DNA from: Acidimicrobiia bacterium
Lineage (GTDB): Bacteria; Actinomycetota; Acidimicrobiia; Spongiisociales; Spongiisociaceae
Direction of reading: 5' to 3'
Assembly: GCA_963663955.1 (NCBI GenBank)
Contig: OY760694.1
Coordinates: forward strand, 3,215,251-3,279,250
Length of the DNA stretch: 64,000 bases
Made by a program: the position numbers and the translations under genes. Positions 12,252 through 38,687 of this stretch are shown in pieces (within the stretch, counting starts at the first letter, position 1; every line of letters begins with the position of its first letter). The notes under the pieces are model-generated. The model saw only the letters and a list, made by a program, of their open reading frames with translations. It was not told the DNA's origin and did not search any database.

Positions 12252-12782
12252 TCAGGTGGCTATTGCAGCGACTTTTTCAGGACGCACCGGATCGATGCCG
12301 AGATCTGCGTATGTGGCCATGGGTAGGTACGCGATGTCATGAACAGCGATTCTCGGACCAGCCGAGTCTCCTCGATCAACCAGTGCCACGACTCCAACGA
12401 TGGTGGCGCCTGTCACCACGTCGTCGACCAGCAGCACGCGCGTGCCCGATCCGACGGGTACTCCCTCGATGCGGCGGCCGGTTCCATGTCCCTTCGGTTG
12501 CTTGCAGATGAAGAACCACCGAGAGTGGTTGGCTGCGGTAATTCCGACAGCCAAGGCGTCAGCGCCCATAGTCGGGCCGCCCACCGCATCGAACTCAATG
12601 CCAGCCTCTTCTACAGCTTCCGTGATGGCCACCGACGCTGTGGAGAGATCGGTCCACTCAGCTAAAGCCTTCTTACCGTCGGACGAAGTAGCTGGACAAA
12701 GCCCCCGATACGGTCCCCGCGGATCCTCTGCGCTCGAACCGCGGATGCGCTCTTGCCGCCCGTTCACCGACCTAGCACCCAC
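12252..12782 (-). CDS. orotate-phosphoribosyltransferase-like PRTase with an abnormally short PRPP-binding region
   Basis: The motifs AVGGPTMGADALA and FFICKQPKGHGTGRRIEG resemble PyrE. The PRPP loop reads RVLLVDDVVTGATIVGVVALVDR, which lacks about 17-20 residues of the usual D-x-x-T-T-G-x-S...helix segment. Confidence 0.45.
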   Translation of the reverse strand: MGARSVNGRQERIRGSSAEDPRGPYRGLCPATSSDGKKALAEWTDLSTASVAITEAVEEAGIEFDAVGGPTMGADALAVGITAANHSRWFFICKQPKGHGTGRRIEGVPVGSGTRVLLVDDVVTGATIVGVVALVDRGDSAGPRIAVHDIAYLPMATYADLGIDPVRPEKVAAIAT

Positions 12783-12898
12783 GCTATACCAGCTGGTTCT
12801 TCACGGCTGGCTCGGAAGAACAATACCGGTAAAACATGGACATCTCAGATATCACTTGGGTCCTCTATCATGGACTGGCTCCAACCAACAGGTGAAGG

Positions 12899-13831
12899 AT
12901 GGTCGAACTGAAAGAGCCTGCTCGATCCCGCTATGTCCGCTCCGGCGGCGCCTCGACGCTTCGATCAGTAGTCGTAGGGGCTGCTGTCTGGTTGCTCGTA
13001 GCCGCTTGTAGCGGGAATGGTGACTCGACAAGCACCGGGCTTTCGGTAACACCTGCCCCGGGCACCTCCGGCGCTCCGGTAGCAGACGATACGACCACGG
13101 TGGTCACTACCACCACGCCCATCACTACTCGAACGACCGCCTCGACAACCTCAACCCCTACGGCAACCAGCGTAATCTCACCGTCGGATGACGAACCCTC
13201 CCCGGTCTCGACAACGACGCCGCCCCCGAGTGCTTCAACCACCGAAGTGGTAGAGCCACCTGCAACCACCACAGTCGAGATACCTACTCCGGACACCATG
13301 CCCGCCGACGCCACGGTTACCTCTGCGGTGGAGAATCCCTCCTCAACCATGCCTCCTCCATCTACAACAACCTCCGTCTCGGTGGTCGAAGAACCGCCGA
13401 CCGTCGCCTTCACCCCGGCAGATGACCTGCTCGACTACGACATGATCGACGTTCACACGGGCGCCACCGTCAACTTACGTTCGGTAGCCACGGGTGAGAA
13501 ACCGCTGCTGTTCTGGTTCTGGTCCCCGTTGTGAGAGACGTGCCGGACCGAAGGCCCGGCCTTCGAGCAGTTCGCTCGGAACAACGCCCATCGGCTCAAC
13601 GTCGTAGGAGTAGGTGGCTTGGGCACCTTCGAGGACGCTCAGAACTACATTACCCACACCGGGGTGACCTTCGCCTTGCTGTGGACCGACACCTGGGACG
13701 TGTGGGACCACTACGGCATGCAGAGTACGTCCGACTTCATCCTCCTCGACCCGTCCGGCAATCGAGTCACCAACGGCGCTCAACCTTATGACGAGGCCCG
13801 CATAGAGGCCCTGGTGGAGGGCTTGTTCTGA
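12899..13831 (+). CDS. TlpA/ResA-like thioredoxin-fold lipoprotein, candidate selenoprotein (in-frame UGA at 13532-13534 in a U-E-T-C motif)
   Basis: Track ORFs 12899-13534 and 13619-13831 are in the same frame, and the whole span 12899-13831 is open apart from a single TGA. There is a lipobox (LLVAAC) and a Thr/Pro-rich linker. The domain then reads ...PLLFWFWSPL-U-ETCRTEGPAFEQFAR...DFILLDPSGNRV. Confidence 0.65.
13542..13560 (+). promoter_or_regulatory. hairpin 7 nt downstream of the UGA (candidate bacterial SECIS)
   Basis: GCCGGACC-GAA-GGCCCGGC forms 8 bp with one A.C mismatch and a 3-nt loop. Confidence 0.4.
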
Positions 13832-13942
13832 ACCTCCCGCATCCGCATCGAAGCAGTCGGCGGATGGATGGCAGCTAAGCCTCGGGTCGAAAGGGGACTA
13901 GGCTAGGGAATCGGACTTAGGAAACCCAAGAAAGCACTCACA

Positions 13943-15049
13943 ATGACCGCATCCGATCCAGCAGGTTTAGCAGTACGACCCAAGCGTCTCCGCTCGCGTA
14001 CCTGGTCGGCGGTGCTGGTAATACTCGCACTGCTGTTTTCCATCATCGTGCCAATCCCTGCCGCAACCGCCGCCGAATTCTCCGATGTGGCCGGTAACAG
14101 CCACGAGACAGCCATCACCGCGCTCGCCGACTCGGGCGTGCTTGACGGCACCGAATGCGGAACGGGACGGTTCTGCCCGGACGATCCCATCGAACGGTGG
14201 GTAATGGCTGTGTGGTTGGTTCGCGTCCTCGGCGGTGACGTAACCTCGGGCGGTACTTCTCGATTCGCCGATGTCGACTCTTCCGCTTGGTGGTCGCCCT
14301 TCACCGAGCAACTCGCCATCCGCAACATTACAGCCGGGTGTAGAACCGGCCCTCTGCGCTACTGCCCCCAGGATGCGGTAACGAGAGGCCAGATGGCGAC
14401 CTTCTTGGTCCGGGCGTTCGATCTAGCCCCAGCCGCCCCGGCCGGATTCGTCGACACCGGCGGCAATACCCATGAGACGAACATCAACGCTCTGGCCGCA
14501 GCCGGCATTACCGCGGGGTGCAGGACGAGTCCGCTCAGCTACTGCCCTCAGAATGCGGTGACGAGAGGCCAGATGGCCTCCTTCCTGCACAGGGCCTCGC
14601 TCAAACAACAGGCCACCGCCGCAGAGATCAGCGACGACGTTCCCAACATCGAGTTGACCGATCTGGCAAGCGGCGCAACCGTCAATCTACGCTCCCTGAT
14701 CTCAGGTGACACCGCAATCCTTCTTTGGTTCTGGGCCGAATGGTGACCTGTCTGCCGGGGGCACGCCCCCGAAGTCGAGCAGTTCGCTCGGCAGAACGCA
14801 GATCGGCTAACCGTAATCGGGATCAACCCGGCTAGCTTGAACAATCAGGCAAGAGGGACGAGCTTCGTAAGCCGCTACAACTTGACGTTTGCAAACCTGT
14901 GGGACGGTTCCAACCGGGTATATCAACATTACGGCCGACCCTACAACTCCAACTTCTGGCTACTGGACCAGAACGGCAACCGGGTGGGCGACCGAGCGGT
15001 TAGCTTCTCCGTGCGTAGCGCACAAGAGAAACTCGACAGCTTGGAATAA
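13943..15049 (+). CDS. SLH-repeat protein fused to a TlpA-like thioredoxin domain, candidate selenoprotein (in-frame UGA at 14744-14746 in a U-P-V-C motif)
   Basis: Track ORFs 13943-14746 and 14837-15049 share a frame, and a single TGA separates ...AILLWFWAEW from PVCRGHAPEVEQFARQNADRLTVIGIN...FWLLDQNGNRV. The N-terminus has a signal peptide and three SLH-like repeats. Confidence 0.65.
14756..14771 (+). promoter_or_regulatory. hairpin 9 nt downstream of the UGA (candidate bacterial SECIS)
   Basis: CGGGGG-CACG-CCCCCG forms a 6-bp G/C stem with a 4-nt loop. Confidence 0.35.
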
Positions 15050-15466
15050 TAGGGTGCCGCAGCCCTACGGCCCTTATCCCGAGCGAACTTGCCTTCGGCG
15101 GTAAGCGCCGACGCCGACCACCACACCCACGTAGGCCAACCAAGGTATATCCGTCACGCCGGTTGAGCCCTGAGGGTTTCGTCAACCAACACCTCTAGGT
15201 CAACACTGGCTGTTGCAACAGTCTTGTCATCCCAACCGGTTAGGTCCTTCACTTCCTGGGGGGCTGATTCCCGGGCGCACCCTAATCAGAGCGTAGAGCA
15301 GGTACGCGCGCTTACCCCGGTCACTGCCATTCTCAGGTCGGTCGGAACTCATGCGCGATCTGCTGCTCTATGTGCCAAAAACCCCACCCAGACAGTTCGC
15401 TTTCAACACCGGAATCGGCATCCTCATCTTCATGCCTTTCCTATCCCTTTGTAGTAATAAGTCTAA

Positions 15467-16425
15467 GAGCGTCCGCGGGTAGGGGTTAGTTGAGGTTGTA
15501 GCGGTCTCGCCATTTGATGAGTTTGATGGTGATGATGAGGGTGATGGCTAGGTTGAGTTGGGCGTGTCGGTGGTGGGTGTTTCGGTCGGTGTTGCGGCGG
15601 AGTTGCCCGTAGTTGGTGAGCCATGAGTTGGTTCGTTCGACGGTCCAGCGCATACCGAGGGGTGCGGGTGTTTTGGTGTTGCCGGTTTGGCCTCGTGGTT
15701 TTTTCTTGGCGCATATGACGTCGGTTATGCCGGCGGCGTCGCAGAGGGCGCGCACGGTTTTGCTGTCGTAGCCTCGGTCTAGGTGGAGGGTTTCTATGTC
15801 GGGGAGCAATCCCCGCCGGTTGATCGCTTCGAGGGTGGGTTGGAATAGGATGCTGTCGTGGCGGTTGGCCCCGTTTGTGGCCCAACCGATCGGTATGCCG
15901 TTGCGGTCTGTGGCCAGGGACCATTTCGGGCCGGATTCGGCCCGGTCGCAGGGGTTTTTCCCGGTTCCTTCCCCCCCGGAGGGCGCTTTGTGTTGGCTAC
16001 CGTCGACCGAGACCTCGGATAGGTCCAACCCGATCACACGGTCGTAGGCGGCTACGGCTTCTGCTTCGAGGTTCTCGAAGACGCCTGCTTTCATCCATTC
16101 ATCGCGTCGGGCCCGCAGAGTCGTGTCCGACACCTCTTTGTTCAAGAGTTGTTCGGCTGTTTCCCACAAGCAGCCGGTCACCAACCGGATCAGTATCCCC
16201 TGGAAGCAGACACGGTCCGGTTTACGGGGATTGTGACAGCCCAGGGGATGGTTGTCCTCCCGGGCGGGCAACAGACCCTTTGTGGCTTTCCACACCGCGT
16301 TTGCTACTTCGGGGTCGAGTGCGCGCATAATGATACCTCCACCAGTTGGGGGATTTGTGTTGCACTCGGTATGAAACCCGAGACAACCCCTCAACTGGTG
16401 GATTTCCACCTACCCGCGGACGCTC
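15467..16425 (-). mobile_element. IS5-family insertion sequence, copy 1 (959 bp)
   Basis: It has 17-bp terminal inverted repeats GAGCGTCCGCGGGTAGG / CCTACCCGCGGACGCTC. It is flanked on both sides by TAA (a 3-bp duplication within CTAAG) and encloses one transposase ORF. Confidence 0.8.
15486..16409 (-). CDS. IS5-family DDE transposase (DUF4096-type N-terminus)
   Basis: Contains GILIRLVTGCLWE, HLDRGYDS and RWTVERTNSWL..YGQLRR. A probable internal ATG start gives MRALDPEV. It differs at 4 residues from the copy at 37745-38668. Confidence 0.85.
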   Translation of the reverse strand: MEIHQLRGCLGFHTECNTNPPTGGGIIMRALDPEVANAVWKATKGLLPAREDNHPLGCHNPRKPDRVCFQGILIRLVTGCLWETAEQLLNKEVSDTTLRARRDEWMKAGVFENLEAEAVAAYDRVIGLDLSEVSVDGSQHKAPSGGEGTGKNPCDRAESGPKWSLATDRNGIPIGWATNGANRHDSILFQPTLEAINRRGLLPDIETLHLDRGYDSKTVRALCDAAGITDVICAKKKPRGQTGNTKTPAPLGMRWTVERTNSWLTNYGQLRRNTDRNTHHRHAQLNLAITLIITIKLIKWRDRYNLN

Positions 16426-16888
16426 TAAGTGATCCTGCACGCCTCGGCTCGACATCGGATGTCCTCCGGCAGAAACAGATCGGTCAGATTAGCCATCGCA
16501 AGCGTTACCGGCCGAGGTCGTTCGGCACTGCCTGAGCGGTTGGAGGTTCACCCGGATTCACGGAGCCCTGCTTACGCAAACAGTTTGCGTATTTCTACAG
16601 CTTTGCGCAATCCGCTCAAAGTTTGCAATCTGCGCAAAGGCAAGGCGCATACACGCACGGGACTGCAATGTCTGCCCAAGCTGAAGCTCACAAGACCGGG
16701 CCGTTATCGGGACGAGGCACACCTAACGACTCGTAGAGGGAACTCGGATAATCCGGAGACGTCATGAGACGGTTGCCCGGTTTGGATGCACGCCGAGGTT
16801 ACTCCCCCCACGAAGATCCGTCGGGCAGTTGTGCTGCATCCTGCCTAAGCTACGGTTCATGGCCTTCCCGTCTGGAATACGGTGAGGA

Positions 16889-18688
16889 GTGTTAACCGTG
16901 GTAGAAGCCCCCCGCCTGAGTGCCGGTGTTCGTATAGAGGCCGTCTGGATCAGCGGTTTTCGCGTGTTGCGAGACGTATGTGTGACCCTTGATCCGGAAA
17001 CCACAGTTCTTGTTGGTGAGAACAACACCGGCAAGTCCGCCTTTCTGGAGGCGCTGGAGACTGCTCTGGGAACGCGATCCCCCGTACCAGACGACCTCCA
17101 CGTCGACGGGGCTGGTCAGCAGAGCCGCGAGTTCCTTGTAGACCTTCTCTTGGTGCCTGCGAGAGGAACCCGGTTCTCTCAGCATCTAGAAGCACTGTTC
17201 GGGGATGCAGTCCGCTCTGAGACCCCACAAGGCTCTGTCGGCGAAGGAGCGCGCAACTTCGTGGCGATACGTACCATCGGTACGATTGGCGTCGATCACA
17301 GCACCGTCGACCGTCGTCGCTGTTTCGTTGAAGGTTGGCCCGGTTGTGGCTCACCCACCGGGACCGGAGTTATGGAGGTGCCGGCACCGCGGGTGACTGA
17401 GCGCCACCTAACCGTACTCTCGTTCGCTCTCTTGCATGCAAATCGTGATCTCGTCGCCGACATGCGACGACAAACAAGCCGGTGGGGTCGACTGCTGGCT
17501 CAGCGCGACCTGGATCAGGACATAGAGAAGTCCGTCGAGGGCCAATTGCGGGAGTTGGGTGAACTTCTTCTCGGGAACAGTTCTCTGCTTGGTCGCCTTC
17601 GGGACCGCCTCGACGAGGCCCGGAAGGCTATGCCGACCGTCGACGAGGTAGAACTTGAACCTCTACCAAGCAGGGTCGCCGACCTCACAAGGGCGACGGA
17701 TATTGTTGTGAGCGCCCCTGCAGGAGCCCGTTTGCCGCTACGGATGCAGGGCCTGGGGAGCCGGAGCCTCGCCGAAGTGCTGGTCTATCGAGCGTTTGTC
17801 GGCGAAATCCCGGGAATGGAAGAGCCCTTCTCACCACACATTGTGGCTGCCTTAGAAGAACCCGAGGCCCACCTACATCCACATGCCCAGCTCGCCCTTA
17901 TGCGCATTATCGATCAAATACCCGGTCAGCGGATCGTCACCACGCACTCAGGCCAGATCGCAGGAACCACACCGATCCGACAAGTTCGAGTCTTCCGGCA
18001 CTCAGATCAAGGCATCGAGGTCAGACGCTCCGGGCACCTTGACGATGCGGACCAGATCAAGACGCACCGTCTCATCGCCCGTTCCTACGGCCAAGTACTT
18101 TTCGCTCGCCTGGCGATCATCGGAGATGGGACAACTGAGCACGACGCCTTACCTGTGTTCGCCCGTGCTCACTGGGGAGCGGAAGCCGAAAGTTTGGGCG
18201 TAACCTTTGTCGATCCGGGGTCCCTCGCCGCGGCGAAGGGGCTTGTCAAAGTGCTTGAAGGCCTTTCCATACCGTGGCTAGCGCTCGTTGACGCCGACCA
18301 GGGGGGCGATAACGCACTACGAGCTATAGGCAACTTGCTTGAACGAACCCTTAATAGGGAGTCGGAAGAAGTCGTGATGCTCCCGGACCGCACAGACTTC
18401 GAACGATATCTGATCGACGAAGGCCTTCAAGCGCCTATCAGGGATGGAATCCGCGCATTCTACGGACCCTACGCACTGGCCAGATTCTCGAAACAGACCA
18501 ATTATCGTGGACGGGGCGAGGATGATGTCCTTGAGGGGTTTCTCGACAAGAACAAGGGAACTTACGGGGCTGCCGTTGCCGAAGCGGTCGTCGCGCTCGA
18601 GGATGAGAACGGTAATCCGACGATTCCGGGGCGGGTCGCGGAGTTATTCAAGCGGGCTGACCATATACTCGGAATGCGTTCGCGATGA
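16889..18688 (+). CDS. gajA: OLD-family ATPase/TOPRIM nuclease (GajA-like)
   Basis: The N-terminal ABC-like ATPase reads VWISGFRVLRDVCVTLDPETTVLVGENNTGKSAFLEAL, with Walker B AALEEPEAHLHP and TTHS. The C-terminal TOPRIM signature is LAIIGDGTTEHD ... LVDADQGGD. It is followed directly by a UvrD-like helicase. The GTG at 16898 has the better SD spacing. Confidence 0.7.
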   Translation: MLTVVEAPRLSAGVRIEAVWISGFRVLRDVCVTLDPETTVLVGENNTGKSAFLEALETALGTRSPVPDDLHVDGAGQQSREFLVDLLLVPARGTRFSQHLEALFGDAVRSETPQGSVGEGARNFVAIRTIGTIGVDHSTVDRRRCFVEGWPGCGSPTGTGVMEVPAPRVTERHLTVLSFALLHANRDLVADMRRQTSRWGRLLAQRDLDQDIEKSVEGQLRELGELLLGNSSLLGRLRDRLDEARKAMPTVDEVELEPLPSRVADLTRATDIVVSAPAGARLPLRMQGLGSRSLAEVLVYRAFVGEIPGMEEPFSPHIVAALEEPEAHLHPHAQLALMRIIDQIPGQRIVTTHSGQIAGTTPIRQVRVFRHSDQGIEVRRSGHLDDADQIKTHRLIARSYGQVLFARLAIIGDGTTEHDALPVFARAHWGAEAESLGVTFVDPGSLAAAKGLVKVLEGLSIPWLALVDADQGGDNALRAIGNLLERTLNRESEEVVMLPDRTDFERYLIDEGLQAPIRDGIRAFYGPYALARFSKQTNYRGRGEDDVLEGFLDKNKGTYGAAVAEAVVALEDENGNPTIPGRVAELFKRADHILGMRSR

Positions 18689-20619
18689 GCGTCACCACTC
18701 TTACCGAACAGCAGATCGCGGCTATTGAACTGGGCGACGGAGCGCACTTGATCACCGCTCCTCCCGGCTCTGGCAAGACCGAGGTGCTGGTACGACGGGT
18801 GATAAGCCTCTTGGACGGATCGCCGCGTGATCTTTTCCGGATACTTGCCCTGACCTACACGGTAAGGGCCGCTCAAGAACTGGAGAAGCGTGCTCGGATG
18901 GTGGTTCCCGAAGACGACCTCTGGCGGGTCAACGCGACAACCTTCCACTCCTTCGCCCTTGGCATTCTGGAGAACTACGGAGGTCCGGTAGGTCTGAAGA
19001 GGCCCATAACCGTCATCTCGGACCTGGAAGACAAGCGCGCTCTCGTCATCCAAACTCTTGAGGAACGGTTCGAGCTGATCGGATCGATAGATCGTTCTGA
19101 ATGGCGGAAACTGTTCAATAGGATCGCCCTGATGAAAACCAGTCTCACCCACCCGACACCGGGCGGACGAGATCGGGTACTAAACGGCAGGATCCGGCTG
19201 TCCGAAGCCTACGAAGCTTACGAAACTGCGCTGACGAATACCGGAAGTGTTGACTATGAAGGGATGATCCGCCAAACGGTCAAGCTGATGGAGATACATC
19301 CATGGGTGGCCTCACACATCCGCCGACAGTACCGGCACATACTGGTCGATGAGGGCCAGGAGCTAACCGGAGGCCAGTACGAACTCTTAAAGATGATACG
19401 GAATGATAACCATCAGAGGTTCTTTGTCGTCGCCGACACCGACCAGTCCATCAACGCCTTCGCGGGGGGTGGTCCTACCTTCTTACGAGAGTTTGTCTCG
19501 GACTTCAATGCCGACGAACACAAGCTCACAACTAACTTCCGGAGCGCCCGGGCCATCGTCGACGCCTTGGGGGGGTTGCGCAAGAATATCGGGGAACGCG
19601 GTGCGCCGACAACGCTCGATAGTGGAACTCTTGCTAGGGGGTGGGTCGGGGCACGCTCCTATGTCAACGACGAGCACGAAGCAGAATCTACCGGTAAGTG
19701 GATCCGCTCCGTCCTGCAGACGGGGCTTGATCCGGAATGGGTGTACAAGGGAGAGGCCACCGCGGTAACACCCGAGGACATCTGCGTTCTCGGGCGAACC
19801 CGCTATGCGTTTGCCAACCTCTTGGATGATCTCCAAGAACACGAGGTTGCCTTCTCTCTGCGCGTCGAGGAAAAGGCCCTCTTCGAGTCATCTCCGGGCC
19901 GCCTAAGCCTCTACGCCCTCAAGCTGGCACAGAACCCGAGAGACCTACCGGCGCAGCGTCGCCTACTGGAAGAGTTGGGAGAACAATACAAAGAGGGCGA
20001 TGACGGTCATGAAGTCCTGTCGACTGAAGCCATCCTCCGAGACTCCGCAAAGCGAGGAAGCCTCCCCCAAGAGTTCATCGAAGCCCTCCTGGGCTCGGAC
20101 ACTGCGACCCCGAACGGCCTCCAAGCGGTTTCGGCATTGATAAGAATGGACGAGATCGGCATCGACCTAGACGATACCGAAAGAGAAGCGTGGTATCGCG
20201 ATCAAGAGCACCTTCAGCGACTGCTCACCGACTATCAAACAACCACCGCGGCGCCTTATCGATCTCTCGCCGGGTTCCTCCGCATGTTATCTCGGCTTGA
20301 GGGCGTCCCACCGTCCGAACCCGGCGTGAGGGTCCTGACACCGCACCGCGCCAGAGGGCTCGGCTTCAAGGTGGTGATTCTTCTAGGAATGAACGACGGC
20401 AACTTCCCTCACTACAAAGCCACATCCCCCGAAGAACTGGCCGAGGAACGTAGAGTGGTCTACGTCGCAGCAAGCCGAGCAGCCAGGGCATTGCTCCTCA
20501 CCCGACCACGTACTCGGCTGTCGAGATATGGCAACTGGTATCGATGCCGGGAGTCACGTTTCATCCGTGAGATGGGGCTGACGATGGAGGAAGTCGCCCC
20601 GGACGCCGACGCCTCCTAG
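18685..20619 (+). CDS. gajB: UvrD/PcrA/Rep-type superfamily-1 helicase (GajB-like)
   Basis: Contains LTEQQIAAIELGDGAHLITAPPGSGKTEVLVRR (motifs Q/I), ILVDEGQE, TNFRS and VLTPHRARGLGF. Its start overlaps the gajA stop (ATGA). Confidence 0.75.
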   Translation: MSVTTLTEQQIAAIELGDGAHLITAPPGSGKTEVLVRRVISLLDGSPRDLFRILALTYTVRAAQELEKRARMVVPEDDLWRVNATTFHSFALGILENYGGPVGLKRPITVISDLEDKRALVIQTLEERFELIGSIDRSEWRKLFNRIALMKTSLTHPTPGGRDRVLNGRIRLSEAYEAYETALTNTGSVDYEGMIRQTVKLMEIHPWVASHIRRQYRHILVDEGQELTGGQYELLKMIRNDNHQRFFVVADTDQSINAFAGGGPTFLREFVSDFNADEHKLTTNFRSARAIVDALGGLRKNIGERGAPTTLDSGTLARGWVGARSYVNDEHEAESTGKWIRSVLQTGLDPEWVYKGEATAVTPEDICVLGRTRYAFANLLDDLQEHEVAFSLRVEEKALFESSPGRLSLYALKLAQNPRDLPAQRRLLEELGEQYKEGDDGHEVLSTEAILRDSAKRGSLPQEFIEALLGSDTATPNGLQAVSALIRMDEIGIDLDDTEREAWYRDQEHLQRLLTDYQTTTAAPYRSLAGFLRMLSRLEGVPPSEPGVRVLTPHRARGLGFKVVILLGMNDGNFPHYKATSPEELAEERRVVYVAASRAARALLLTRPRTRLSRYGNWYRCRESRFIREMGLTMEEVAPDADAS

Positions 20620-20985: not shown

Positions 20986-22413
20986 CTATCTACCTATAGC
21001 CTGGAGCAATTCTTCGGTTTCGCGGGCGAGACGTTCCGCAACTGCTACATGCTCTATTTCGGGTATACCCCACTCCGGATCGATCGACTCCGCCACTATA
21101 CGTATACCACCAGCCGCTTCGGTGTCCTCGAATCTGTATACGCCCAGGTCGTCCGGACTTATAGGGGAACCTCCCGATGCATGCTCGGCCCCCTGCGACC
21201 TGAGCATGCAATTGGAAACCTGATGTAGAAACTCAGAGCTATGAGTGGTACACAGAACCCTCACGCCTGCCCCGGCCAGGGCCACCAATGACTCGGCAAC
21301 AGCCAGGATCGCCTCGGGATGCATATGAGCCTCAGGCTCGTCAATCAGCAGCAAATCGCCTGGGCGCAAGATGTGCTTAACCCAACCGAGCAGCGGCACT
21401 ACCTCCGCCACCATCGAAGAAGCCCGCTGCACCGGAATCTCTTTACCATCCTGTGCATAGGTAAAGGAAGGAACCTTATCCCTCCCCCTTCCGAACTTGA
21501 TCTCACCGGCGATCAACCCATCCAAACGCTCGACAGCCGCAAACATCATCATGTCGGACTGGAGCGGTCGTCGAGGCTGTATGAGTGGAAGCAACTCGGA
21601 CAGGAAATCCAAGGCTATGCCTCCCAAGGCGGCAGGTTCCCGACCCTTGAGAGCGAGACGGTCACGCTCCCGTTCGAGCCTGAGACGCACCACATCCGTC
21701 CACGCCTCCAGTAACCCGGATCGCCCGGCCGGTAAGTAATAAGCCGATCCACCTAAGCCGGCCGACGGCAGGAAACCCTCAGCCCACACAAACCGGGCAA
21801 GCTGAAGAGATATCCGCCGTCTCGCATATCCAGCAAGGTCACCCTCTCGGGACCTTTCCCAATACCTTCGGGCACCCCTCAGGACGGGACCGCGCGTCGG
21901 TCGACCGGGTTGGTAAGCCATGGCCGGGAAGAAGTCCGCTACTTCAGCAGAAGGGCCTCCACCCAAACCGAACAGGAACCGATCCTCTCCGGCGATCCTG
22001 CAGGAAACCGCAACATCAAGATCGGAGTCGGCAGCCCACCTTTGTATCTCATCCAACCCCTTGACATCAAAATAGATCTTCAGTCGATCCTCTAGATGTT
22101 CGTCCGCTTGACCCATAAGGTCGCCCAACCACCGCTCGGCTTTCCCCCTCACGGACGACCCGAACACAGCCCAACCATCGTCAGCTACGGATCGACGATC
22201 GGCGGCAATCACCTGTTCGACTTCCTCGTCGGACAAAAGCGGCTCCGGCACGCCATTCACCTGATCCACAGCCTTGAACACCGAATACACCGCCTGAGCA
22301 GCGTACGTCTTCCCCGTATTGTTCTTACCGATCAGCACCGTGAGAGGATGAAGCTGGATCTCACCCTCTCGAATCGGGCCAAGATTCCGCAAACGGATCA
22401 TTGGATAAGCCAC
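20986..22413 (-). CDS. stand-alone ABC/SMC-like ATPase (AAA_15/21-like)
   Basis: Contains MIRLRNLGPIREGEIQLHPLTVLIGKNNTGKT (Walker A), YLPAGRSG (Q-loop-like), LLLIDEPEAHMHPEA (Walker B) and CTTHSSEF. Confidence 0.65.
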   Translation of the reverse strand: MAYPMIRLRNLGPIREGEIQLHPLTVLIGKNNTGKTYAAQAVYSVFKAVDQVNGVPEPLLSDEEVEQVIAADRRSVADDGWAVFGSSVRGKAERWLGDLMGQADEHLEDRLKIYFDVKGLDEIQRWAADSDLDVAVSCRIAGEDRFLFGLGGGPSAEVADFFPAMAYQPGRPTRGPVLRGARRYWERSREGDLAGYARRRISLQLARFVWAEGFLPSAGLGGSAYYLPAGRSGLLEAWTDVVRLRLERERDRLALKGREPAALGGIALDFLSELLPLIQPRRPLQSDMMMFAAVERLDGLIAGEIKFGRGRDKVPSFTYAQDGKEIPVQRASSMVAEVVPLLGWVKHILRPGDLLLIDEPEAHMHPEAILAVAESLVALAGAGVRVLCTTHSSEFLHQVSNCMLRSQGAEHASGGSPISPDDLGVYRFEDTEAAGGIRIVAESIDPEWGIPEIEHVAVAERLARETEELLQAIGR

Positions 22414-22767: not shown

Positions 22768-24873
22768 TCAGGCCGCTTCGAAGTCCCGTGTGTTCGACAG
22801 GTCGAACGTGTTGGCGTGTGAGGGTTCGGGCGAGTACTCGGTGTAGCTGATCCGGGTATACGCTCCGGAATACAGTGCCTCTTCGAATGCTTCAAGACGT
22901 ACTGGCGCACCTCTCACTGTCAACCGATCGTTGTCATCGTATTGCACCAGCTTGGGGCTACGCGCGTCGTGGAGGATCAGATTCCTCGTCACGTCCTGTA
23001 CCAGGATGGGCACACCCAGAACAGATCGTCCTTCAGCCTGGGGCTTAGCCCAGTAGTGCGCCATGGGCTGGGCCGTAACCTCACCTGCCGTTTGGGCTGC
23101 GATGGTCTCTGTGTCAGGTTCGGCTCCGGTCCATATGTACCGGAGCGACGCCACACCCCGCTGGTCGGTGTTTCTAACGGTTGGGACGGTTCCGACTCCG
23201 TGGCCGTCATCAGATGTGAATGCGATGCTTTCCCCAACCACCGGGGCGCCGTACTGGTCGGTGAGGACCCCTGTCACCACGTTCACGGGACCCGGCCCGG
23301 ATCCGGTGAGTTCGTGGTAACGCATTACCTGCCTGAGCCGGAGGGTGGTAGCCCTAGGCGCTTGCTCGGACCATGTAACCGGGGCGTCTAGCGTCGAGCC
23401 ATCTCCGCCCGCCACTCCAAGGGTGCTCCGGTCGATCACAGTAAGACCCTGGACCGACACGTCGATGTCCATCGTGGTCTCATCACCACCCGTAGACGGG
23501 TCCGGATCGGACGCTTGGTAGGAAACAGTAACCCTGCCCCCGACATCTGTCCGGTAGGTTTTGACACTGGTCAGGTCTCTCACCCCGTTCCTTACATACG
23601 TGGTGGAGACTTGTACCCGGTGTCCCGCTTCGCCAACCGCTCGACCGTCTTCGTCGACCAACTGGAATACGAACCCGATTGGCACACCAAACATGAGTGC
23701 CTGGGCGGTGGACCGCATATCGTCGGCGACCAGGACCGACGAGGCTGGTTTCAGCACCTGGACGTCGGCCATAGCAGCTGTAGTAGTAGCCAACCGGAAG
23801 CGGCTCCCCTGAGAACCCGTCCAGGCCCACAACCTTATGTTGTCGACTGGTTGAAGGACCACCCGAACGTTACCGGACTCATCAAGCTGCTGATCGGACC
23901 CATCAATCGTGCACACCCGTGCTCCGACCGTGGCCTGCACTCCCTCCCGGCAGGCGCCATCTGCGCCGAACAACTCGTAGGGATCGTCGGCCGAGGTGGA
24001 AAACATGTCTATTCGCATCCCGGTCCGGGGCTGGAACCTGGCGTCACGAACGGAAACCTGCACCTCGAGCGTGTCGCCGGCGGAGATAACCGAGGAGGCG
24101 CTCTGGATCGATATGCCTTCCGGGCGTGAGTTCGTATGGGCTAAGGCCCGGGTCACGAATAGGGCCATCTGGCCCCTCGTTAGGAGGGTTCGGGGCGAGA
24201 AGGTCGTGGCAGTAACCCCCACCGTGATGCCCATCTCGTACATCACCCTCACCGCGGTGACCACCAGCTCGGACTGGTCGCCCAGATCCTGAAACACGTC
24301 ATCGTCCGGCGTGACCACAGATACGTCCGTCCCGCCGGGACCGGTAGGGGCCAAATTGAGGAAGCGGTACAGGAAAAGGGCCATCTGGCGGCGATCCATC
24401 GGGCTATCCGGGTGGAAGGTAGTAGGCGAGGTACCCCGAGTAATCCCCATGGTCGCCAGTTGATTGATGGCGACTTGGATGTGAGGAGCATGGTGGGCGA
24501 TATCCTGGAACCCTTGATCGATTGCCACAGGCACAGCGATTCCGGCCGGCCCGGAGGCCCGCACCAAGAACATCGCCATCTGCCAGCGAGTTATCGGATC
24601 GTCGGGTGCGTATCGGTTGGCCGTTTTTCCTACCGAAATGCCGTAGTAGGCAAGACAATTGATGCCCTGTTCGGCGAAATGGCCGGCTACATCCAGGAAT
24701 CCGGCTGAAGCATTAGCGGCTCCCGTACACGCCGAGTAGACAGCAAGATGGTCCGGTTGGCCGTCAACAGCTCGGACCGGTGACGGAGCCGCCACCACCG
24801 ACGCAGCGACCAAAGCGGCAAGCAAGACCACTGCCGTACGTTTTGAGGCCCATGTGCTCATACACTCTGTCAC
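22768..24873 (-). CDS. large secreted surface protein: signal peptide + 3 SLH-like repeats + Ig-like/beta-rich C-terminal region (paralogue 1)
   Basis: It has a signal peptide. The SLH block begins YSAC...AGFLDVAGHF..INCLAYYGI...ITRWQMAMFLVRA, with two further SLH repeats. It also has the HTNSRPEG motif shared with the other four paralogues. Confidence 0.7.
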   Translation of the reverse strand: MTECMSTWASKRTAVVLLAALVAASVVAAPSPVRAVDGQPDHLAVYSACTGAANASAGFLDVAGHFAEQGINCLAYYGISVGKTANRYAPDDPITRWQMAMFLVRASGPAGIAVPVAIDQGFQDIAHHAPHIQVAINQLATMGITRGTSPTTFHPDSPMDRRQMALFLYRFLNLAPTGPGGTDVSVVTPDDDVFQDLGDQSELVVTAVRVMYEMGITVGVTATTFSPRTLLTRGQMALFVTRALAHTNSRPEGISIQSASSVISAGDTLEVQVSVRDARFQPRTGMRIDMFSTSADDPYELFGADGACREGVQATVGARVCTIDGSDQQLDESGNVRVVLQPVDNIRLWAWTGSQGSRFRLATTTAAMADVQVLKPASSVLVADDMRSTAQALMFGVPIGFVFQLVDEDGRAVGEAGHRVQVSTTYVRNGVRDLTSVKTYRTDVGGRVTVSYQASDPDPSTGGDETTMDIDVSVQGLTVIDRSTLGVAGGDGSTLDAPVTWSEQAPRATTLRLRQVMRYHELTGSGPGPVNVVTGVLTDQYGAPVVGESIAFTSDDGHGVGTVPTVRNTDQRGVASLRYIWTGAEPDTETIAAQTAGEVTAQPMAHYWAKPQAEGRSVLGVPILVQDVTRNLILHDARSPKLVQYDDNDRLTVRGAPVRLEAFEEALYSGAYTRISYTEYSPEPSHANTFDLSNTRDFEAA

Positions 24874-25104: not shown

Positions 25105-27177
25105 TCAGCGGTTCGTCAGTATGTAGCCGTTGACTATCCCGGAGCCGGCACCCATAATCCGGTATTCGAGGGTATCGCGGACAGTCAGGTCATCTTCGAA
25201 ATCCGAGTAGCTGACGGCCTTCTTGTTGATGGTGAACTGATCATTCGAATCGTACTCCACGAGGAGGATGTCGTTAGTGGCCACGATAATCGCGGTGTCC
25301 TCATCGGTGTCCACCACTCGAACGGTGCCCGAACCGTTTGCCGGGCCTTGTATGCGGGTGACCCAGAACTGGCGCGTAGTGGACGTAATCCGATCGAACG
25401 AACCGGTTACCCGCTCGGCGAAGCTTTCGTTCGAGTCCCTTTGGTAGTTGAGGGCGGCCACCCCGCTCGCATTGGTAGTACGTCGGATCCCGTTCGGAAC
25501 CCCTCTGCTGTCATTGGACGAGAAGACCACTTGCTCGCCTCTTACCGGCCCCCCATATTGGTCACTGAGGAGGGCTGTGACCGTGGCAGCTGCACCGCTT
25601 CCCGCGGATGAGGCCACTACGTATTCCTGCAATGCTGAAAGGGTCAGCGTGGTGGGCTCAGGTCGTTCATCGGACCATTGCAAGGTCGGATCGTCGCGGG
25701 TTCCGTCATCATCCACAATCCCGACCGCCGTCTCGTCGGTAACGCCGAGACCGCCTCCCGGCATCACATCAAGATCCAGAAACGCCACGTCACCCCGCTC
25801 CTCCGATGGGTCGATGTTGAGGAAGGTTGCCTGCGCGGACCCGTCGATTCCGGTCTGCTTGGTCAGGGTGGTCGTCTCGATCCTCTTTCCCCCGTCCCGT
25901 GACTCCTGAACTTCCACCACGAATGACGCCCCCTGCCAGGGAACCGGGTTCCCGTCGTCGTCGACCACCTGGAAGGTGAAGGTCACCGCTCTACCGAAAG
26001 GCACCCGCACCGCACTGTCCGGTAGGTCGTCGGTCACCAGCAGGGCGGCAGGTGTACTGCGAGTGGCTACGTCTACCGCCACGAAACGGGTGCGGTTCAG
26101 GTCGAACACAGCACTGAGATTTCCTGTCCACACCCAGATTCTTACAATCGCCGACTCACCGACTTCAACATCGGCAGTCAAGTTCCCGGAGATGTCGGTG
26201 GTTGGATCCCGACGATCAATGACACATTCGGTGGCACCCGCCGCGGGTATCGCCTCGGATGTGCACCGGCCCTCTTTGTCAAACGCCTTGTCCTGTGTCT
26301 CGGTGGTGAACAGGTCCACCCCCTGATTTGCAAAGGCTCCGTGGGTGCCGTCGCGGAGGGTTATCGAGATCTCAGCGCTTGACCCCTTGAACACCTTCTC
26401 GTCGGTGGTCTGAACAGACAAACCGGCGGGACGGGCGTTGGTGTGGGCCAGCATACGGGTTATGAATACCGCCATCTGGCCCCGGGTAACCCAGGCGTCC
26501 GGGGAGAACGCATTGGCGGTGGTCCCTTGGGTGACACCCAACTCGTAGAGCCGCCGTATGGCCCGGTTGGTAACGAAGGGCACTTGGTCTAGGTCCTTGA
26601 AGTTGCTGTCATCAGGCCGGACATCACGTATGGCTGTGCCTCCAGGCCCGATAGGAGCCGCCTCCAAGAACCGGGACAACAACATGGCCATCGACTGGCG
26701 TGTAACCGGTTCGGCAGGTCCATAGGTTTTATCTGCCAAACCCGGCATGATCCCCAATTGAGCCATCTGGTTGATTCCGGCCTGGATGTGAGTAGCGTAG
26801 GTGCCTAGGTCGGTAAACCCCTGGGCGGTGGGCTTGGGCAGCACGAGCCCGGCCGGATGGGTTGCTCGCTGTAGGAACAAGGCCATCTGCCAGCGGGGGA
26901 TTATGTCGCGAGGAGAAAACCTCCCGGCCCCCGTACCGAAAGTAATTCCGTAGTGAGCAAGGCAGTTAGCAGCTTCCTCGGCGAAGTTACCGGCCATGTC
27001 AACAAACCCGGCAGGGGTTACGGCGGCGTCGACACAGGCAGAATACCGGGCTGGATGATCCACCACCCCGTCCACCCCTGCCGCGGGAGGTAGGTGCCCG
27101 AATAGCAGAGATCCCACCAGCAACAGGGCGAGCGTCGGCAACGCCCAACGTTTGTGCGGTGCTGCCGCTTCGAACAT
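25105..27177 (-). CDS. SLH + Ig-like surface protein (paralogue 2)
   Basis: Same architecture: YSACVDAAVTPAGFVDMAGNFAEEAANCLAHYGI..., HTNARPAG, a C-terminal HYW/FWV motif and Y-D-x-N-D-x-F. Confidence 0.7.
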   Translation of the reverse strand: MFEAAAPHKRWALPTLALLLVGSLLFGHLPPAAGVDGVVDHPARYSACVDAAVTPAGFVDMAGNFAEEAANCLAHYGITFGTGAGRFSPRDIIPRWQMALFLQRATHPAGLVLPKPTAQGFTDLGTYATHIQAGINQMAQLGIMPGLADKTYGPAEPVTRQSMAMLLSRFLEAAPIGPGGTAIRDVRPDDSNFKDLDQVPFVTNRAIRRLYELGVTQGTTANAFSPDAWVTRGQMAVFITRMLAHTNARPAGLSVQTTDEKVFKGSSAEISITLRDGTHGAFANQGVDLFTTETQDKAFDKEGRCTSEAIPAAGATECVIDRRDPTTDISGNLTADVEVGESAIVRIWVWTGNLSAVFDLNRTRFVAVDVATRSTPAALLVTDDLPDSAVRVPFGRAVTFTFQVVDDDGNPVPWQGASFVVEVQESRDGGKRIETTTLTKQTGIDGSAQATFLNIDPSEERGDVAFLDLDVMPGGGLGVTDETAVGIVDDDGTRDDPTLQWSDERPEPTTLTLSALQEYVVASSAGSGAAATVTALLSDQYGGPVRGEQVVFSSNDSRGVPNGIRRTTNASGVAALNYQRDSNESFAERVTGSFDRITSTTRQFWVTRIQGPANGSGTVRVVDTDEDTAIIVATNDILLVEYDSNDQFTINKKAVSYSDFEDDLTVRDTLEYRIMGAGSGIVNGYILTNR

Positions 27178-27736: not shown

Positions 27737-28819
27737 ATGAGAATCAAACGCTTCGAGATTAGTGCCTTTAGGACATTCGACCATCTCACGTTGGGCGGGT
27801 TACGTCGAGTTAACCTCATCGCAGGACAGAACAACGTTGGAAAGACGGCCCTGCTCGAAGCGTTGTGGCAGTTCTCGGGGCCCAATCAACCTGATATCGG
27901 TCTACGGCTTGATCAGTTCCGAGGAATCCATTGGATCGAGGAAGATTACCTGTTTGCCAATTTGTTTCATGGTCGTGATACATCCAAGCCTATAGAACTG
28001 AGAGCCCATGGAGATGCGTCCGTGACTCCGCGTGTTCTAAGGATCGAAACAAGGACTCGAACAACGTCTCGGACTCCCTTAAACGGAAACGGTGCCTCCG
28101 AGGCAATCATGCCAACCCTCGTAGATAGGCCGCATGAGTTAGTCCTTACGTACGAGGATGGATCGGCAGAATATGAATCCCGCGGATGGTTCGAACCCAG
28201 CCGTACACCTGCCGGGGTCCAGAACTCCTTTGAGACACAGAGACATCAGATTCCAGGTGGGCTGGTCGCCGCGTATTTCAGTCCGAGCCACCGCAATCCC
28301 TCGCAGGAAGATGCTGATCGGCTTGGGCGCCTTCAAGTAAGGGACGCCGATGCAATGGTCGTTGACGCCCTCAGGCCCTTCGAACCACAACTGCAACGGC
28401 TGGTGACCGTATCTGTCAGTGGAATACCCGTAATCCACGCGGATCTGGGACAGAACCGTCTCATTCCGATGGGTCTCCTGGGCGACGGTATGCAACGCTT
28501 GCTTTCCCTGACTCTCGCCTTTGACGTCGCGTCAGGGGGAATGATTCTGGTCGACGAGATCGAGAACGGGATCCACCACTCCAAACTAGACTACTTGTGG
28601 CGAGCCATATCGGTCTTTTCAATGAGGTTCGACGTTCAGGTATTCGCCACCACCCACAGCGCCGAATGTGTAAGTGCCGCGCATGAAGCTTTTGAGCATG
28701 AAGACCACTACGACTTTCGTCTCATCCGCCTGGATCGGCTCAACGGGGCAACCGTGGCCAAGTCATTCGACCGGTCTACTCTGGGCACCGCCATAGAGGC
28801 GGACTTCGAGGTGCGCTAG
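27737..28819 (+). CDS. ABC-like ATPase of a two-gene ATPase/TOPRIM module (copy a)
   Basis: Contains MRIKRFEISAFRTFDHLTLGGLRRVNLIAGQNNVGKTALLEAL (Walker A), ILVDEIENGIHHS (Walker B) and FATTHSAEC. GGAGG lies 7 nt upstream of the ATG. Confidence 0.75.
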   Translation: MRIKRFEISAFRTFDHLTLGGLRRVNLIAGQNNVGKTALLEALWQFSGPNQPDIGLRLDQFRGIHWIEEDYLFANLFHGRDTSKPIELRAHGDASVTPRVLRIETRTRTTSRTPLNGNGASEAIMPTLVDRPHELVLTYEDGSAEYESRGWFEPSRTPAGVQNSFETQRHQIPGGLVAAYFSPSHRNPSQEDADRLGRLQVRDADAMVVDALRPFEPQLQRLVTVSVSGIPVIHADLGQNRLIPMGLLGDGMQRLLSLTLAFDVASGGMILVDEIENGIHHSKLDYLWRAISVFSMRFDVQVFATTHSAECVSAAHEAFEHEDHYDFRLIRLDRLNGATVAKSFDRSTLGTAIEADFEVR

Positions 28820-29436
28820 TGGTCCGAACTAAACCGGTCAGCATCAAGGAGGCCGGCCTCGTATTGGTTGAGGGCAAGGATGACCAGAAGTTTCTCCACC
28901 GCCTGAGTGATCACATGGAACTCAGGGGACTCCAGATTCTCAGCTATGGAGGGAAGGACACACTTCGAGATTACCTAAGGACCATACGCCGGCTGCCCGG
29001 GTACGAAAGCGTGCAACATCTCGCAATCGTTCGCGACGCGGACGATAATGCTGAGAACGCCTTCCGCAGTGTCCGCAGCGCGCTGATCGACGCGGAATTA
29101 CCGGACCCGCCAAGACCGGATGAAATGGCATCGTTGCCAAAAGTTGGGCTAAAAGTCTCGGTGATGATCATCCCCCCTGGCTTTCAACGGGGCTGTTTGG
29201 AAACCTTGCTTTGGCAGATTATCAAGACCGCCTCATCCGCGAATTGTATAAGCGAGTATATTGATTGTGCTGAGATCCCTGCCAGAGGAACCCGGCGCGA
29301 TAGAGCGATGGTCCACGCTTACATAGCCGCCCAGCACAAGCCGGGCCTCAAGATCGGTGAGGCCTCCCAGGCTGGCTACTTTGACTTGGACCATGCTGCA
29401 CTCCGCCCTGTCAAGACCTTCTTAGCAGAGTGGTAG
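28819..29436 (+). CDS. small TOPRIM-like protein (copy a)
   Basis: The GTG start shares one nucleotide with the ATPase TAG stop (TAGTG). It has the conserved Glu motif LVLVEGKDD and the acidic D-x-D cluster AIVRDADDN, matching the TOPRIM pattern. Confidence 0.6.
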   Translation: MVRTKPVSIKEAGLVLVEGKDDQKFLHRLSDHMELRGLQILSYGGKDTLRDYLRTIRRLPGYESVQHLAIVRDADDNAENAFRSVRSALIDAELPDPPRPDEMASLPKVGLKVSVMIIPPGFQRGCLETLLWQIIKTASSANCISEYIDCAEIPARGTRRDRAMVHAYIAAQHKPGLKIGEASQAGYFDLDHAALRPVKTFLAEW

Positions 29437-37432: not shown

Positions 37433-37728
37433 ATAATCCGCCGTAGCAGGTTCCCGAACTGCAACAGGTGATCCGGAAAGATATCACCAATGCCTGAAGG
37501 GGGTGGTACGCGTCCCATCCTTGCCGAATCCAAGATCGAGTGTTGCCAGGCCCACAAAACTGAAGCGTTCCGCCCAACCGTACCCATCGGAGTCATGCCA
37601 CAGATCCGACTTGTAAGTGCAATGTTCGAGTCAGCAGGCTTGTCGAGTCCGCCGTTGTCCCTGGTCAGGAGCTTACCCGTGGCTGCGCTTCGCTTCGACA
37701 GGCCTCACTCATGAGGAATCGGGGCTAA

Positions 37729-38687
37729 GAGCGTCCGCGGGTAGGTGGAAATCCACCAGTTGAGGGGTTGTCTCGGGTTTCATACCGAGTGCAACACAAA
37801 TCCCCCAACTGGTGGAGGTATCATTATGCGCGCACTCGACCCCGAAGTAGCAAACGCGGTGTGGAAAGCCACAAAGGGTCTGTTACCCGCCCGGGAGGAC
37901 AACCATCCCCTGGGCTGTCACAATCCCCGTAAACCGGACCGTGTCTGCTTCCAGGGGATACTGATCCGGTTGGTGACCGGCTGCTTGTGGGAAACAGCCG
38001 AACAACTCTTGAACAAAGAGGTGTCGGACACGACTCTGCGGGCCCGACGCGATGAATGGACGAAAGCAGGCGTCTTCGAGAACCTCGAAGCAGAAGCCCT
38101 AGCCGCCTACGACCGTGTGATCGGGTTGGACCTATCCGAGGTCTCGGTCGACGGTAGCCAACACAAAGCGCCCTCCGGGGGGGAAGGAACCGGGAAAAAC
38201 CCCTGCGACCGGGCCGAATCCGGCCCGAAATGGTCCCTGGCCACAGACCGCAACGGCATACCGATCGGTTGGGCCACAAACGGCGCCAACCGTCACGACA
38301 GCATCCTATTCCAGCCCACCCTCGAAGCTGTCGACCGGCGGGGATTGCTCCCCGACATAGAAACCCTCCACCTAGACCGAGGCTACGACAGCAAAACCGT
38401 GCGCGCCCTCTGCGACGCCGCCGGCATAACCGACGTCATATGCGCCAAGAAAAAACCACGAGGCCAAACCGGCAACACCAAAACACCCGCACCCCTCGGT
38501 ATGCGCTGGACCGTCGAACGAACCAACTCATGGCTCACCAACTACGGGCAACTCCGCCGCAACACCGACCGAAACACCCACCACCGACACGCCCAACTCA
38601 ACCTAGCCATCACCCTCATCATCACCATCAAACTCATCAAATGGCGAGACCGCTGGAACCTCAACTAACCCCTACCCGCGGACGCTC
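37729..38687 (+). mobile_element. IS5-family insertion sequence, copy 2 (959 bp), inverted relative to copy 1
   Basis: It has the same 17-bp terminal inverted repeats and is flanked by TAA on both sides. Confidence 0.8.
37745..38668 (+). CDS. IS5-family DDE transposase
   Basis: A 307-aa ORF that differs at 4 residues from 15486-16409. Confidence 0.85.
   Translation: MEIHQLRGCLGFHTECNTNPPTGGGIIMRALDPEVANAVWKATKGLLPAREDNHPLGCHNPRKPDRVCFQGILIRLVTGCLWETAEQLLNKEVSDTTLRARRDEWTKAGVFENLEAEALAAYDRVIGLDLSEVSVDGSQHKAPSGGEGTGKNPCDRAESGPKWSLATDRNGIPIGWATNGANRHDSILFQPTLEAVDRRGLLPDIETLHLDRGYDSKTVRALCDAAGITDVICAKKKPRGQTGNTKTPAPLGMRWTVERTNSWLTNYGQLRRNTDRNTHHRHAQLNLAITLIITIKLIKWRDRWNLN

Follow-up and report, generated by a model that had tools for sequence, protein, structure and literature searches.

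In a 64,000-nt stretch of DNA from an Acidimicrobiia bacterium (contig OY760694.1 of assembly GCA_963663955.1, positions 3,215,251 to 3,279,250 of the forward strand; hereafter the window) we found two adjacent genes, gene 1 and gene 2, each of which carries an in-frame UGA at the position of the first catalytic cysteine of a thioredoxin-fold domain. We consider it very likely that both are functional selenoprotein genes in which this UGA is recoded with the help of a selenocysteine insertion sequence (SECIS), that they encode oxidoreductases, predicted to be exported, with a U-x-x-C active site (U or Sec, selenocysteine), and that the pair was duplicated from a gene that already contained Sec. 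Two hairpins, HP1 and HP2, follow each UGA. The conserved and covarying one that fits the bacterial SECIS (bSECIS) consensus is HP2, 27–29 nt downstream; from the sequence we infer that Sec is the residue inserted and that SelB would bind at this hairpin.

The gene pair and its in-frame stop codons

The sole in-frame stop of gene 1 is a TGA in the context ..LLFWFWSPL-U-ETCR.., and that of gene 2 a TGA in the context ..LLWFWAEW-U-PVCR... Both genes lie on the forward strand and are separated by 111 nt (Table 1). An earlier, sequence-only reading of this DNA had described them as diverged paralogues with differing flanks (SPL-U-ETC versus AEW-U-PVC), a stop at the identical position and a hairpin within 10 nt downstream of each stop. 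This description is borne out by a pairwise alignment, in which the two redox domains share 38% identity over 138 residues and both stops fall into one column, and by the proximal hairpin HP1, which begins 8 nt (gene 1) or 9 nt (gene 2) after the UGA.

Apart from these two sites, UGA behaves as an ordinary stop codon in this DNA. The 56 long non-overlapping open reading frames (ORFs) of the window end with TGA in 28 cases, with TAG in 19 and with TAA in 9; among the TGA-ended ORFs, those for YjeF, two amidohydrolases, a luciferase-like monooxygenase and GajA close just past full-length domain matches, and the terminator of gene 1 itself is a TGA. Genome-wide reassignment of UGA to a sense codon, which the sequence-only reading had named as a case that would refute it, was therefore rejected.

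The UGA codon is retained in relatives of both genes

Among the best 120 database matches to gene 2, which we used as protein relatives, about 108 end at the residue directly before the site (..WFWAEW, ..WFWSPY, ..WFFSPG, ..WFLSPF, ..WLYSPY), and full-length forms with cysteine (Cys) are limited to three (P0002, P0011, P0023). The search with the gene 1 domain returned fragments only: N-terminal pieces that stop at ..WFW(S/V)P(L/F/H) (P0122–P0133), and a single match that is a C-terminal piece. All N-terminal gene 1-type pieces examined (P0122–P0133) have lipoprotein-type N-termini with ..(A/G)AC.. lipoboxes and Thr/Pro-rich linkers. Five proteins of 570–596 residues (P0107, P0110, P0112, P0114, P0117) combine RCC1-like repeats with S-layer homology (SLH) repeats and end with ..W(L/R)YSPY at the pre-Sec position; as carriers of the Sec thioredoxin module they add a third domain architecture.

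On the DNA level, a metagenome scan was seeded with only the 42 residues before the site and is thus blind to the difference between Sec and Cys. It yielded 50 loci, 48 of which are readable at the site; all 48 have TGA, then xxC and then an open frame, and no Cys form is present among them. Altogether, 51 loci chosen without regard to the Sec/Cys codon provide 49 distinct related DNA sites, all with TGA followed by xxC and 92–112 in-frame codons; a downstream frame of this length is present in 57 of 58 sites. In four related genome-scale contigs the TGA and xxC are likewise followed by 98–112 more in-frame codons. The arrangement of the genes is kept as well, with the same pair in the same order in orthologous loci of three other genomes. 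Like the window, L082 and L083 contain a gene 1-type gene with a gene 2-type gene immediately after it. L084 has three such genes in a row, located 3' of a YjeF gene, again as in the window. The gene 1 orthologues of these loci (L082_5585, L083_5585 and L084_5624) also contain the TGA.

In the region 3' of the hairpins, differences between relatives at the first, second and third codon positions stand at 2040:1570:3208, and 39% of the differing codons are synonymous. The bias towards third positions and the synonymous share indicate that the sequence beyond the UGA is translated and evolves under selection. The sequence-only reading had argued that two independent nonsense hits at the same codon are very unlikely and had named untranslated relics as the case that would speak against Sec; the comparative data exclude chance, and relics are contradicted by the TGA in 49 distinct sites, the open downstream frame and the third-position-biased differences.

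The alignment column of the site contains Cys in 83 Cys homologues and in DsbE and DsbF of Mycobacterium tuberculosis, i.e. it is a Sec/Cys pair. A scan of a genome collection with a peptide pattern that included the Cys returned Cys homologues only, and these served as a negative control.

A conserved, covarying hairpin downstream of the UGA

We aligned 48 distinct 75-nt segments following the UGA, which was possible without gaps. The 15-nt core of HP2 (CGAGC-AGUUC-GCUCG) is identical in gene 1 and gene 2. Over the whole alignment, columns 42–46 pair with columns 52–56 in 239 of 240 cells, and the same helix is obtained by unguided RNAalifold. The helix shows covariation, with CG 36, UA 8 and GC 1 at pair 42:56 and AU 42 and GC 5 at pair 44:54, and within the loop A-G-U-U-Y the G-U-U is invariant. 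HP2 encodes the peptide V-E-Q-F-A-R; the compensations in it consist of an amino-acid change on one side of the stem (R to Q, E to G) and a synonymous change on the other. Moreover, the Ala codon inside the HP2 stem is GCT in 43 of the 49 sites, whereas in the rest of these genes GCT accounts for 30 of 312 Ala codons, fewer than any other Ala codon; the rare codon is used because it keeps the HP2 pair.

HP1 is found in most sequences, in shifting registers, so that 61% of the cells pair in a single register. One of its pairs alternates between G-C (16), C-G (13) and U-G (6), the A.C mismatch of gene 1 becomes A-U in the orthologue from L082, and the HP1 of gene 2 shows a compensatory change from G-C to A-U in L084_8088.

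When the 75-nt segment was subjected to dinucleotide shuffling, gene 2 reached a z-score of -3.8 (0 of 200 shuffles), and gene 1 was not outstanding (z -1.4). In the Sec forms, randomisation of synonymous codons gave z-scores averaging -2.1 for HP2 and -1.5 for HP1, compared with about -0.2 in the 83 Cys forms, and HP2 is absent from the Cys homologues with the exception of P0002 (L135/L136). A covariance model built from distant metagenome relatives only scored the two window sites with 55.6 and 51.1 bits, the next best site in the 64 kb reaching 11 bits; this match shows site specificity and not the reality of the RNA structure, as the model also captures peptide conservation.

The bSECIS consensus, as given in the available text of PMC13188914, comprises a loop of 5 nt whose second base is G and whose third is U, a stem of 5–7 bp and a spacing of 16–37 nt. 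Compared with that text, HP2 agrees in every term, including the minimum free energy (MFE): its loop is AGUUC, its stem has 5–7 bp, the spacing is 34 nt and the MFE is -9.4 and -11.6 kcal/mol at the two window sites. Against the same description, HP1 falls just outside the consensus, as its spacing of 15 nt is one nucleotide short and the HP1 of gene 2 also departs from the loop-G rule. Together with its register shifts (61% paired), the 15-nt spacing makes HP1 the less likely SECIS candidate, and it is probably not the SelB-binding element. The hairpin that the sequence-only reading noticed next to the UGA, HP1, is thus real, but the role of SECIS would pass to the better conserved HP2.

Like the bSECISearch model and the SECIS of Escherichia coli fdhF, HP2 has a small apical loop with G-U and an upper stem of 5–7 bp, and it lies inside the ORF. 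Unlike in fdhF, a GC-rich hairpin fills the spacer, and there is no equivalent of the bulged U. The loop G-U of the window genes is located about 16 nt further from the UGA than what we take to be the position of the fdhF loop.

A different hairpin was observed in four other loci, L030 (1707/2449), L036 (1646/2400), L053 (2329/3079) and L055 (3079/3800), which belong to two Ilumatobacteraceae-labelled and two Actinomycetota-labelled metagenome-assembled genomes. In each of them a Sec paralogue with the motif ..WFWAPF-U-S(T/V/I)CNREAP.. comes after a Cys-containing gene for a TlpA-like lipoprotein. The hairpin of these paralogues, GCC-CCUC-GGUC-GAGG-GGC, has its loop GGUC 26 nt after the UGA; it is a second, separately evolved SECIS of the same superfamily and class. 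The GGUC loop presumably resembles that of E. coli fdhF.

Proposed mechanism and alternative explanations

According to the mechanism we propose, the UGA codons at 13532 and 14744 would be decoded as selenocysteine by Sec-tRNA(Sec) brought by SelB, which would be recruited by an in-ORF SECIS just 3' of the UGA, with HP2 as its most likely binding part. The GC-rich HP1 would fill the spacer and may aid pausing or positioning. In the protein, Sec would serve as the attacking nucleophile of the U-x-x-C motif, and the downstream Cys would resolve the selenenylsulfide. The product of gene 1 is predicted to be a lipoprotein on a long Thr/Pro-rich tether, that of gene 2 to be held to the cell wall by three SLH repeats.

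Several observations weigh against this mechanism. Genes for selA, selB, selD and tRNA-Sec were found neither in the 64-kb window nor in the 138 fetched loci: ARAGORN detected no tRNA-Sec in the window or these loci, Pfam searches of 30 window ORFs gave no sel gene, and tblastn with an E. coli SelD query gave no match. Rfam returned no family match at the gathering score, nor at E-values up to 10 over positions 13480–14860. The 34-nt spacing of HP2 is close to the upper limit of the consensus, and HP1 sits at about the distance of the hairpin in E. coli fdhF, so that HP1 may instead be the SelB site. Furthermore, HP2 lies within the conserved peptide EQFAR, so that its sequence conservation is partly protein-driven, and when the 19-nt hairpin is considered by itself, only 35 of the 49 HP2 copies reach -7.5 kcal/mol.

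That no Sec machinery was found in the DNA available would also fit a readthrough of the UGA that does without it. In this case a tRNA for Trp or Cys, near-cognate to UGA, or a suppressor particular to the lineage would decode the codon, and the hairpins would act as stimulators only. Stable hairpins right after a stop codon can promote readthrough, and HP1 follows the UGA by 8–9 nt. We regard this explanation as improbable, however, as the catalytic nucleophile of a CxxC motif occupies this site, where Trp would inactivate the enzyme and a plain TGC or TGT would be better than a misread Cys. In addition, the loop G-U and the spacing match the SelB-type bSECIS consensus, reversions lead to Cys codons only, and UGA ends about half of the window ORFs. 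Somewhat less probable still is that the UGAs are true terminators and that the genes encode a truncated SLH-only protein and a linker-only lipoprotein, the downstream pieces being untranslated or made separately. UGA is a normal stop in this genome, and public annotations do call ORFs of 74–78 residues after the stop (including P0121); these ORFs, however, begin 60–120 nt after the UGA and are thus devoid of xxC and helix 1. Judging from the structural model described below, products cut at the UGA would break off partway through the beta-strand/active-site turn of the thioredoxin fold. The frame is continuous across the UGA in 49 of 49 distinct sites despite identities of 35–80%, and the hairpin covaries and occurs only together with UGA, the fossil copy in P0002 (see below) excepted.

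We give next to no weight to the idea that the genes are pseudogenes with independent nonsense mutations, or that the TGAs are assembly errors. The stops themselves and the insertion sequence (IS) element adjoining gene 2 would suit such decay. Against it, the TGA recurs at this codon across many samples and assemblies, with about 108 protein clusters and 49 distinct DNA sites, the downstream region is under purifying selection, and the order of the pair is kept in three other genomes.

Probable duplication of a selenocysteine-containing ancestor

In a neighbour-joining tree of 138 domains, comprising Sec and Cys forms, the Sec forms of the family constitute one clade with the three close Cys forms nested inside. 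Gene 1 groups with L082_5585, L083_5585 and L084_5624, and gene 2 with L137_905, L082_6799, L085, L081 and L084_8088. As these are two separate orthologue groups that both contain Sec, the gene that was duplicated already had Sec; and as the groups span genomes, the duplication predates them, and UGA and SECIS were passed on to both copies. The duplicated Sec gene pair assumed in the sequence-only reading is therefore upheld by the phylogeny with Cys homologues, in which each gene belongs to its own Sec orthologue group within the Sec clade.

P0002 (L135 5739, L136 4477) has a TGC codon at the site and a fully intact HP2, and its nearest relative, L087, is a Sec form; this combination points to a recent Sec-to-Cys change that left a fossil SECIS. 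Both forms also occur side by side on one 2.6-kb contig, L137, where a Sec form (95–1210; P0006 plus the downstream piece) adjoins a Cys form (1428–2531; P0023). Both are forms of the SLH-thioredoxin protein, and in the Cys copy HP2 is lost, 1 of 5 pairs being left.

Protein domains, fold and predicted cellular location

With the stop read through, both C-terminal domains hit the profiles AhpC-TSA, Redoxin and Thioredoxin_8. Both genes pass the cut-off of 26 bits for PF00578, and gene 1 remains just under the cut-off of 27 for PF13905 (25.0 bits). Both genes score far under cut-off with every equivalog and subfamily model for ResA, DsbE and TlpA and are thus members of the superfamily and not of a named orthologue group. 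The closest solved structures by sequence to gene 2 are PDB 1LU4 (M. tuberculosis MPT53/DsbE; E 1.8e-14), with the context WFWTPW-C-PFC, and 3IOS (M. tuberculosis DsbF; E 8e-12).

Evidence for the fold comes from P0002, a Cys homologue that shares 57% identity with gene 2. Its AlphaFold model (pLDDT 87) has three SLH repeats ahead of a thioredoxin fold, with a strand at 237–242, Cys247 and a helix at 248–263. The model places the C/U-x-x-C at the predicted N-terminus of helix 1, after the ..LWFW.. strand. The SLH half superposes on Bacillus anthracis Sap (3PYW, TM score 0.84) and Paenibacillus alvei SpaA, with TM scores of 0.84–0.87, and the redox half on DsbE, DsbF, ResA, CcmG and pneumococcal Etrx1/2 (TM 0.75–0.86). 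Gene 1 has a lipobox, and gene 2 has SLH repeats behind an N-terminus that resembles a signal peptide; these motif readings of the translations suggest that both products are most likely displayed outside the membrane. By likeness to the redox proteins named above, they would act either as reductants (ResA/TlpA-like) or as oxidants (like M. tuberculosis DsbE).

The WFW-x-x-W-C-P-x-C context is common to M. tuberculosis DsbE (MPT53, 1LU4) and DsbF (3IOS), Bacillus subtilis ResA and Streptococcus pneumoniae Etrx1/Etrx2, all of which are oxidoreductases that monoderm bacteria export or carry as lipoproteins. Unlike the window genes, all of them use Cys and none is SLH-anchored. The partners of the DsbE, ResA and Etrx systems (cytochrome c maturation, MsrAB, oxidative folding) are not identifiable beside the window genes, and no ccdA or msrAB gene is adjacent to them. 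As for the SLH half, wall proteins such as B. anthracis Sap and P. alvei SpaA have three SLH repeats as found here, where TRAQ/TRGQ occur as variants of the TRAE motif; the passenger of gene 2 is a selenoenzyme, unlike the usual S-layer or enzyme modules of such proteins.

Relation to known selenoprotein families

The mechanism itself, i.e. UGA/SECIS recoding in a UxxC thioredoxin fold, is textbook, and selenoproteins of this type, with UxxC in a thioredoxin fold, have been listed since 2004–2005. As far as they are described in the available text of PMC1088965 and PMC13188914, the known UxxC families have, as here, a TlpA/AhpC-TSA-type domain with Sec first in UxxC, an in-ORF hairpin and Cys homologues. 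The window genes correspond to the definition (cd02966/PF13905 or PF00578 plus UxxC) stated there for 'Thiol-disulfide isomerase-like protein' and 'Prx-like thiol:disulfide oxidoreductase', membership being judged by description; the reference accessions of these families are MGB1650493.1 and WP_010940744.1. The NCBIfam model NF041054 ('ResA-like WAxxUGC motif-containing protein') shares the ResA-like fold with Sec in the active-site turn; it was rejected as a family for the window genes, with 19.5 bits against a cut-off of 300 and UPVC/UETC in place of U-G-C.

What differs from the known families is the architecture and the extent. Gene 2 adds three SLH repeats, and relatives have RCC1-like plus SLH repeats, while the family tables in the available parts of the 2022 and 2026 reviews give only the thioredoxin-type domain and the motif. 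Also unlike the known UxxC families, the family is greatly expanded and almost wholly Sec-containing in an Acidimicrobiia lineage; one named source of relatives is Candidatus Spongiisocius (order Ca. Spongiisociales). Literature searches for SLH with selenocysteine, sponge with selenoprotein, and Spongiisocius gave nothing relevant, which is weak evidence of absence. The SLH fusion, the near-exclusive use of Sec across Acidimicrobiia paralogues and the HP2-type SECIS thus appear to be unreported.

More tentatively, the two genes may be part of a broad and apparently undescribed radiation of selenoproteins at the cell surface of Acidimicrobiia, sponge symbionts such as Ca. Spongiisocius among them. 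It would comprise SLH, lipoprotein and RCC1 plus SLH forms of one TlpA-like domain, in which Sec is ancestral, Cys reversions are rare, a family-specific two-hairpin SECIS is shared and almost all members are annotated as truncated. If this is true, extracellular selenium redox chemistry would be a trait of the lineage, possibly tied to oxidising host tissue. For the symbiont, the gene pair suggests a need for selenium and a redox function outside the cell. More than 100 public protein clusters appear to be cut at the Sec codon and are named 'S-layer homology' or hypothetical; the covariance model and the signature WFW-x-x-x-U-x-x-C could correct those annotations. The family also adds a well-supported covarying SECIS and a live Sec-to-Cys reversion with a fossil SECIS, and it suggests that selenoenzymes can be displayed on a monoderm actinobacterial wall via SLH anchors.

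Table 1. Features of the two proposed selenoprotein genes (positions in the window)
Feature	Position	Strand	Remarks
Gene 1, lipoprotein-type TlpA/DsbE/DsbF-like thiol-disulfide oxidoreductase	12899..13831	+	310 residues; proposed Sec at residue 212; terminal TGA 13829-13831
Gene 1 predicted lipoprotein signal peptide, lipobox L-V-A-A-C (Cys37)	12899..13009	+	Motif reading of the translation
Gene 1 Thr/Pro/Ser-rich low-complexity linker	13010..13405	+	From the translation; relatives have similar linkers
Gene 1 thioredoxin-fold domain, UxxC = U-E-T-C	13406..13828	+	PF00578 30.6 bits (cut-off 26)
Gene 1 putative Sec-UGA codon, residue 212	13532..13534	+	Same column as first Cys of CxxC
Gene 1 proximal hairpin HP1, CCGGACC-GAA-GGCCCGG, one A.C mismatch	13543..13559	+	8 nt after UGA
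Gene 1 distal hairpin HP2, proposed SECIS core	13562..13580	+	5-bp core 13564-13578 plus two outer pairs; loop AGUUC; 34 nt UGA to loop
Gene 2, SLH-anchored TlpA/ResA/DsbE-like thiol-disulfide oxidoreductase	13943..15049	+	368 residues; proposed Sec at residue 268; terminal TAA
Gene 2 predicted N-terminal signal peptide (basic stretch, hydrophobic core, A-T-A-A)	13943..14074	+	Read from the translation
Gene 2 SLH repeat region	14075..14587	+	PF00395, E 6e-11
Gene 2 thioredoxin-fold domain, UxxC = U-P-V-C	14615..15046	+	PF00578 50.5, PF08534 41.1, PF13905 28.4 bits
Gene 2 putative Sec-UGA codon, residue 268	14744..14746	+	U aligned to first Cys of WCPFC in 1LU4
Gene 2 proximal hairpin HP1, CGGGGG-CACG-CCCCCG	14756..14771	+	9 nt after UGA
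Gene 2 distal hairpin HP2, proposed SECIS core	14774..14792	+	7 bp (core 14776-14790); loop AGUUC; 34 nt UGA to loop

Genomic surroundings

A scan of positions 12600–15500 for promoters and terminators gave nothing above chance. The sequence-only reading had called all other core genes in the first 15 kb intact, which agrees with their full-length Pfam matches except for a pyrE-like ORF directly upstream of gene 1 (12252–12782, reverse strand, 176 aa). This ORF looks internally shortened, scores 50 bits against a cut-off of 106.8 for orotate phosphoribosyltransferase and may be a decayed or divergent gene.

Downstream of gene 2, an IS4/IS5-family element of 967 nt is present twice (15463–16429 and 37725–38691). 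The copies are 99% identical and inverted, encode a transposase of 307 aa (DDE_Tnp_1 plus DUF4096) and bracket 21.3 kb beginning right after gene 2, in the manner of a composite transposon. A Gabija anti-phage pair is located at 16889–20619, with GajA (OLD-type ATPase plus TOPRIM, PADLOC E 3e-102) overlapping GajB (UvrD helicase, E 4e-107). Further defence-type genes at 20986–22413, 27737–29436, 40568–41698, 43653–45829 and 47527–48465 encode AbiLi/PDC-M38A-like ATPases, two of them paired with DUF3226/PDC-M38B proteins, and a PD-T4-4_A-like ATPase, so that much of the region from 16 to 48 kb looks like a defence island. In addition, the window contains five genes for SLH surface proteins of 690–766 aa on the reverse strand (22768–24873, 25105–27177, 35267–37432, 49261–51366 and 51528–53828), three of them with Big_1 Ig-like domains; SLH anchoring thus seems to be a major envelope theme of this organism.

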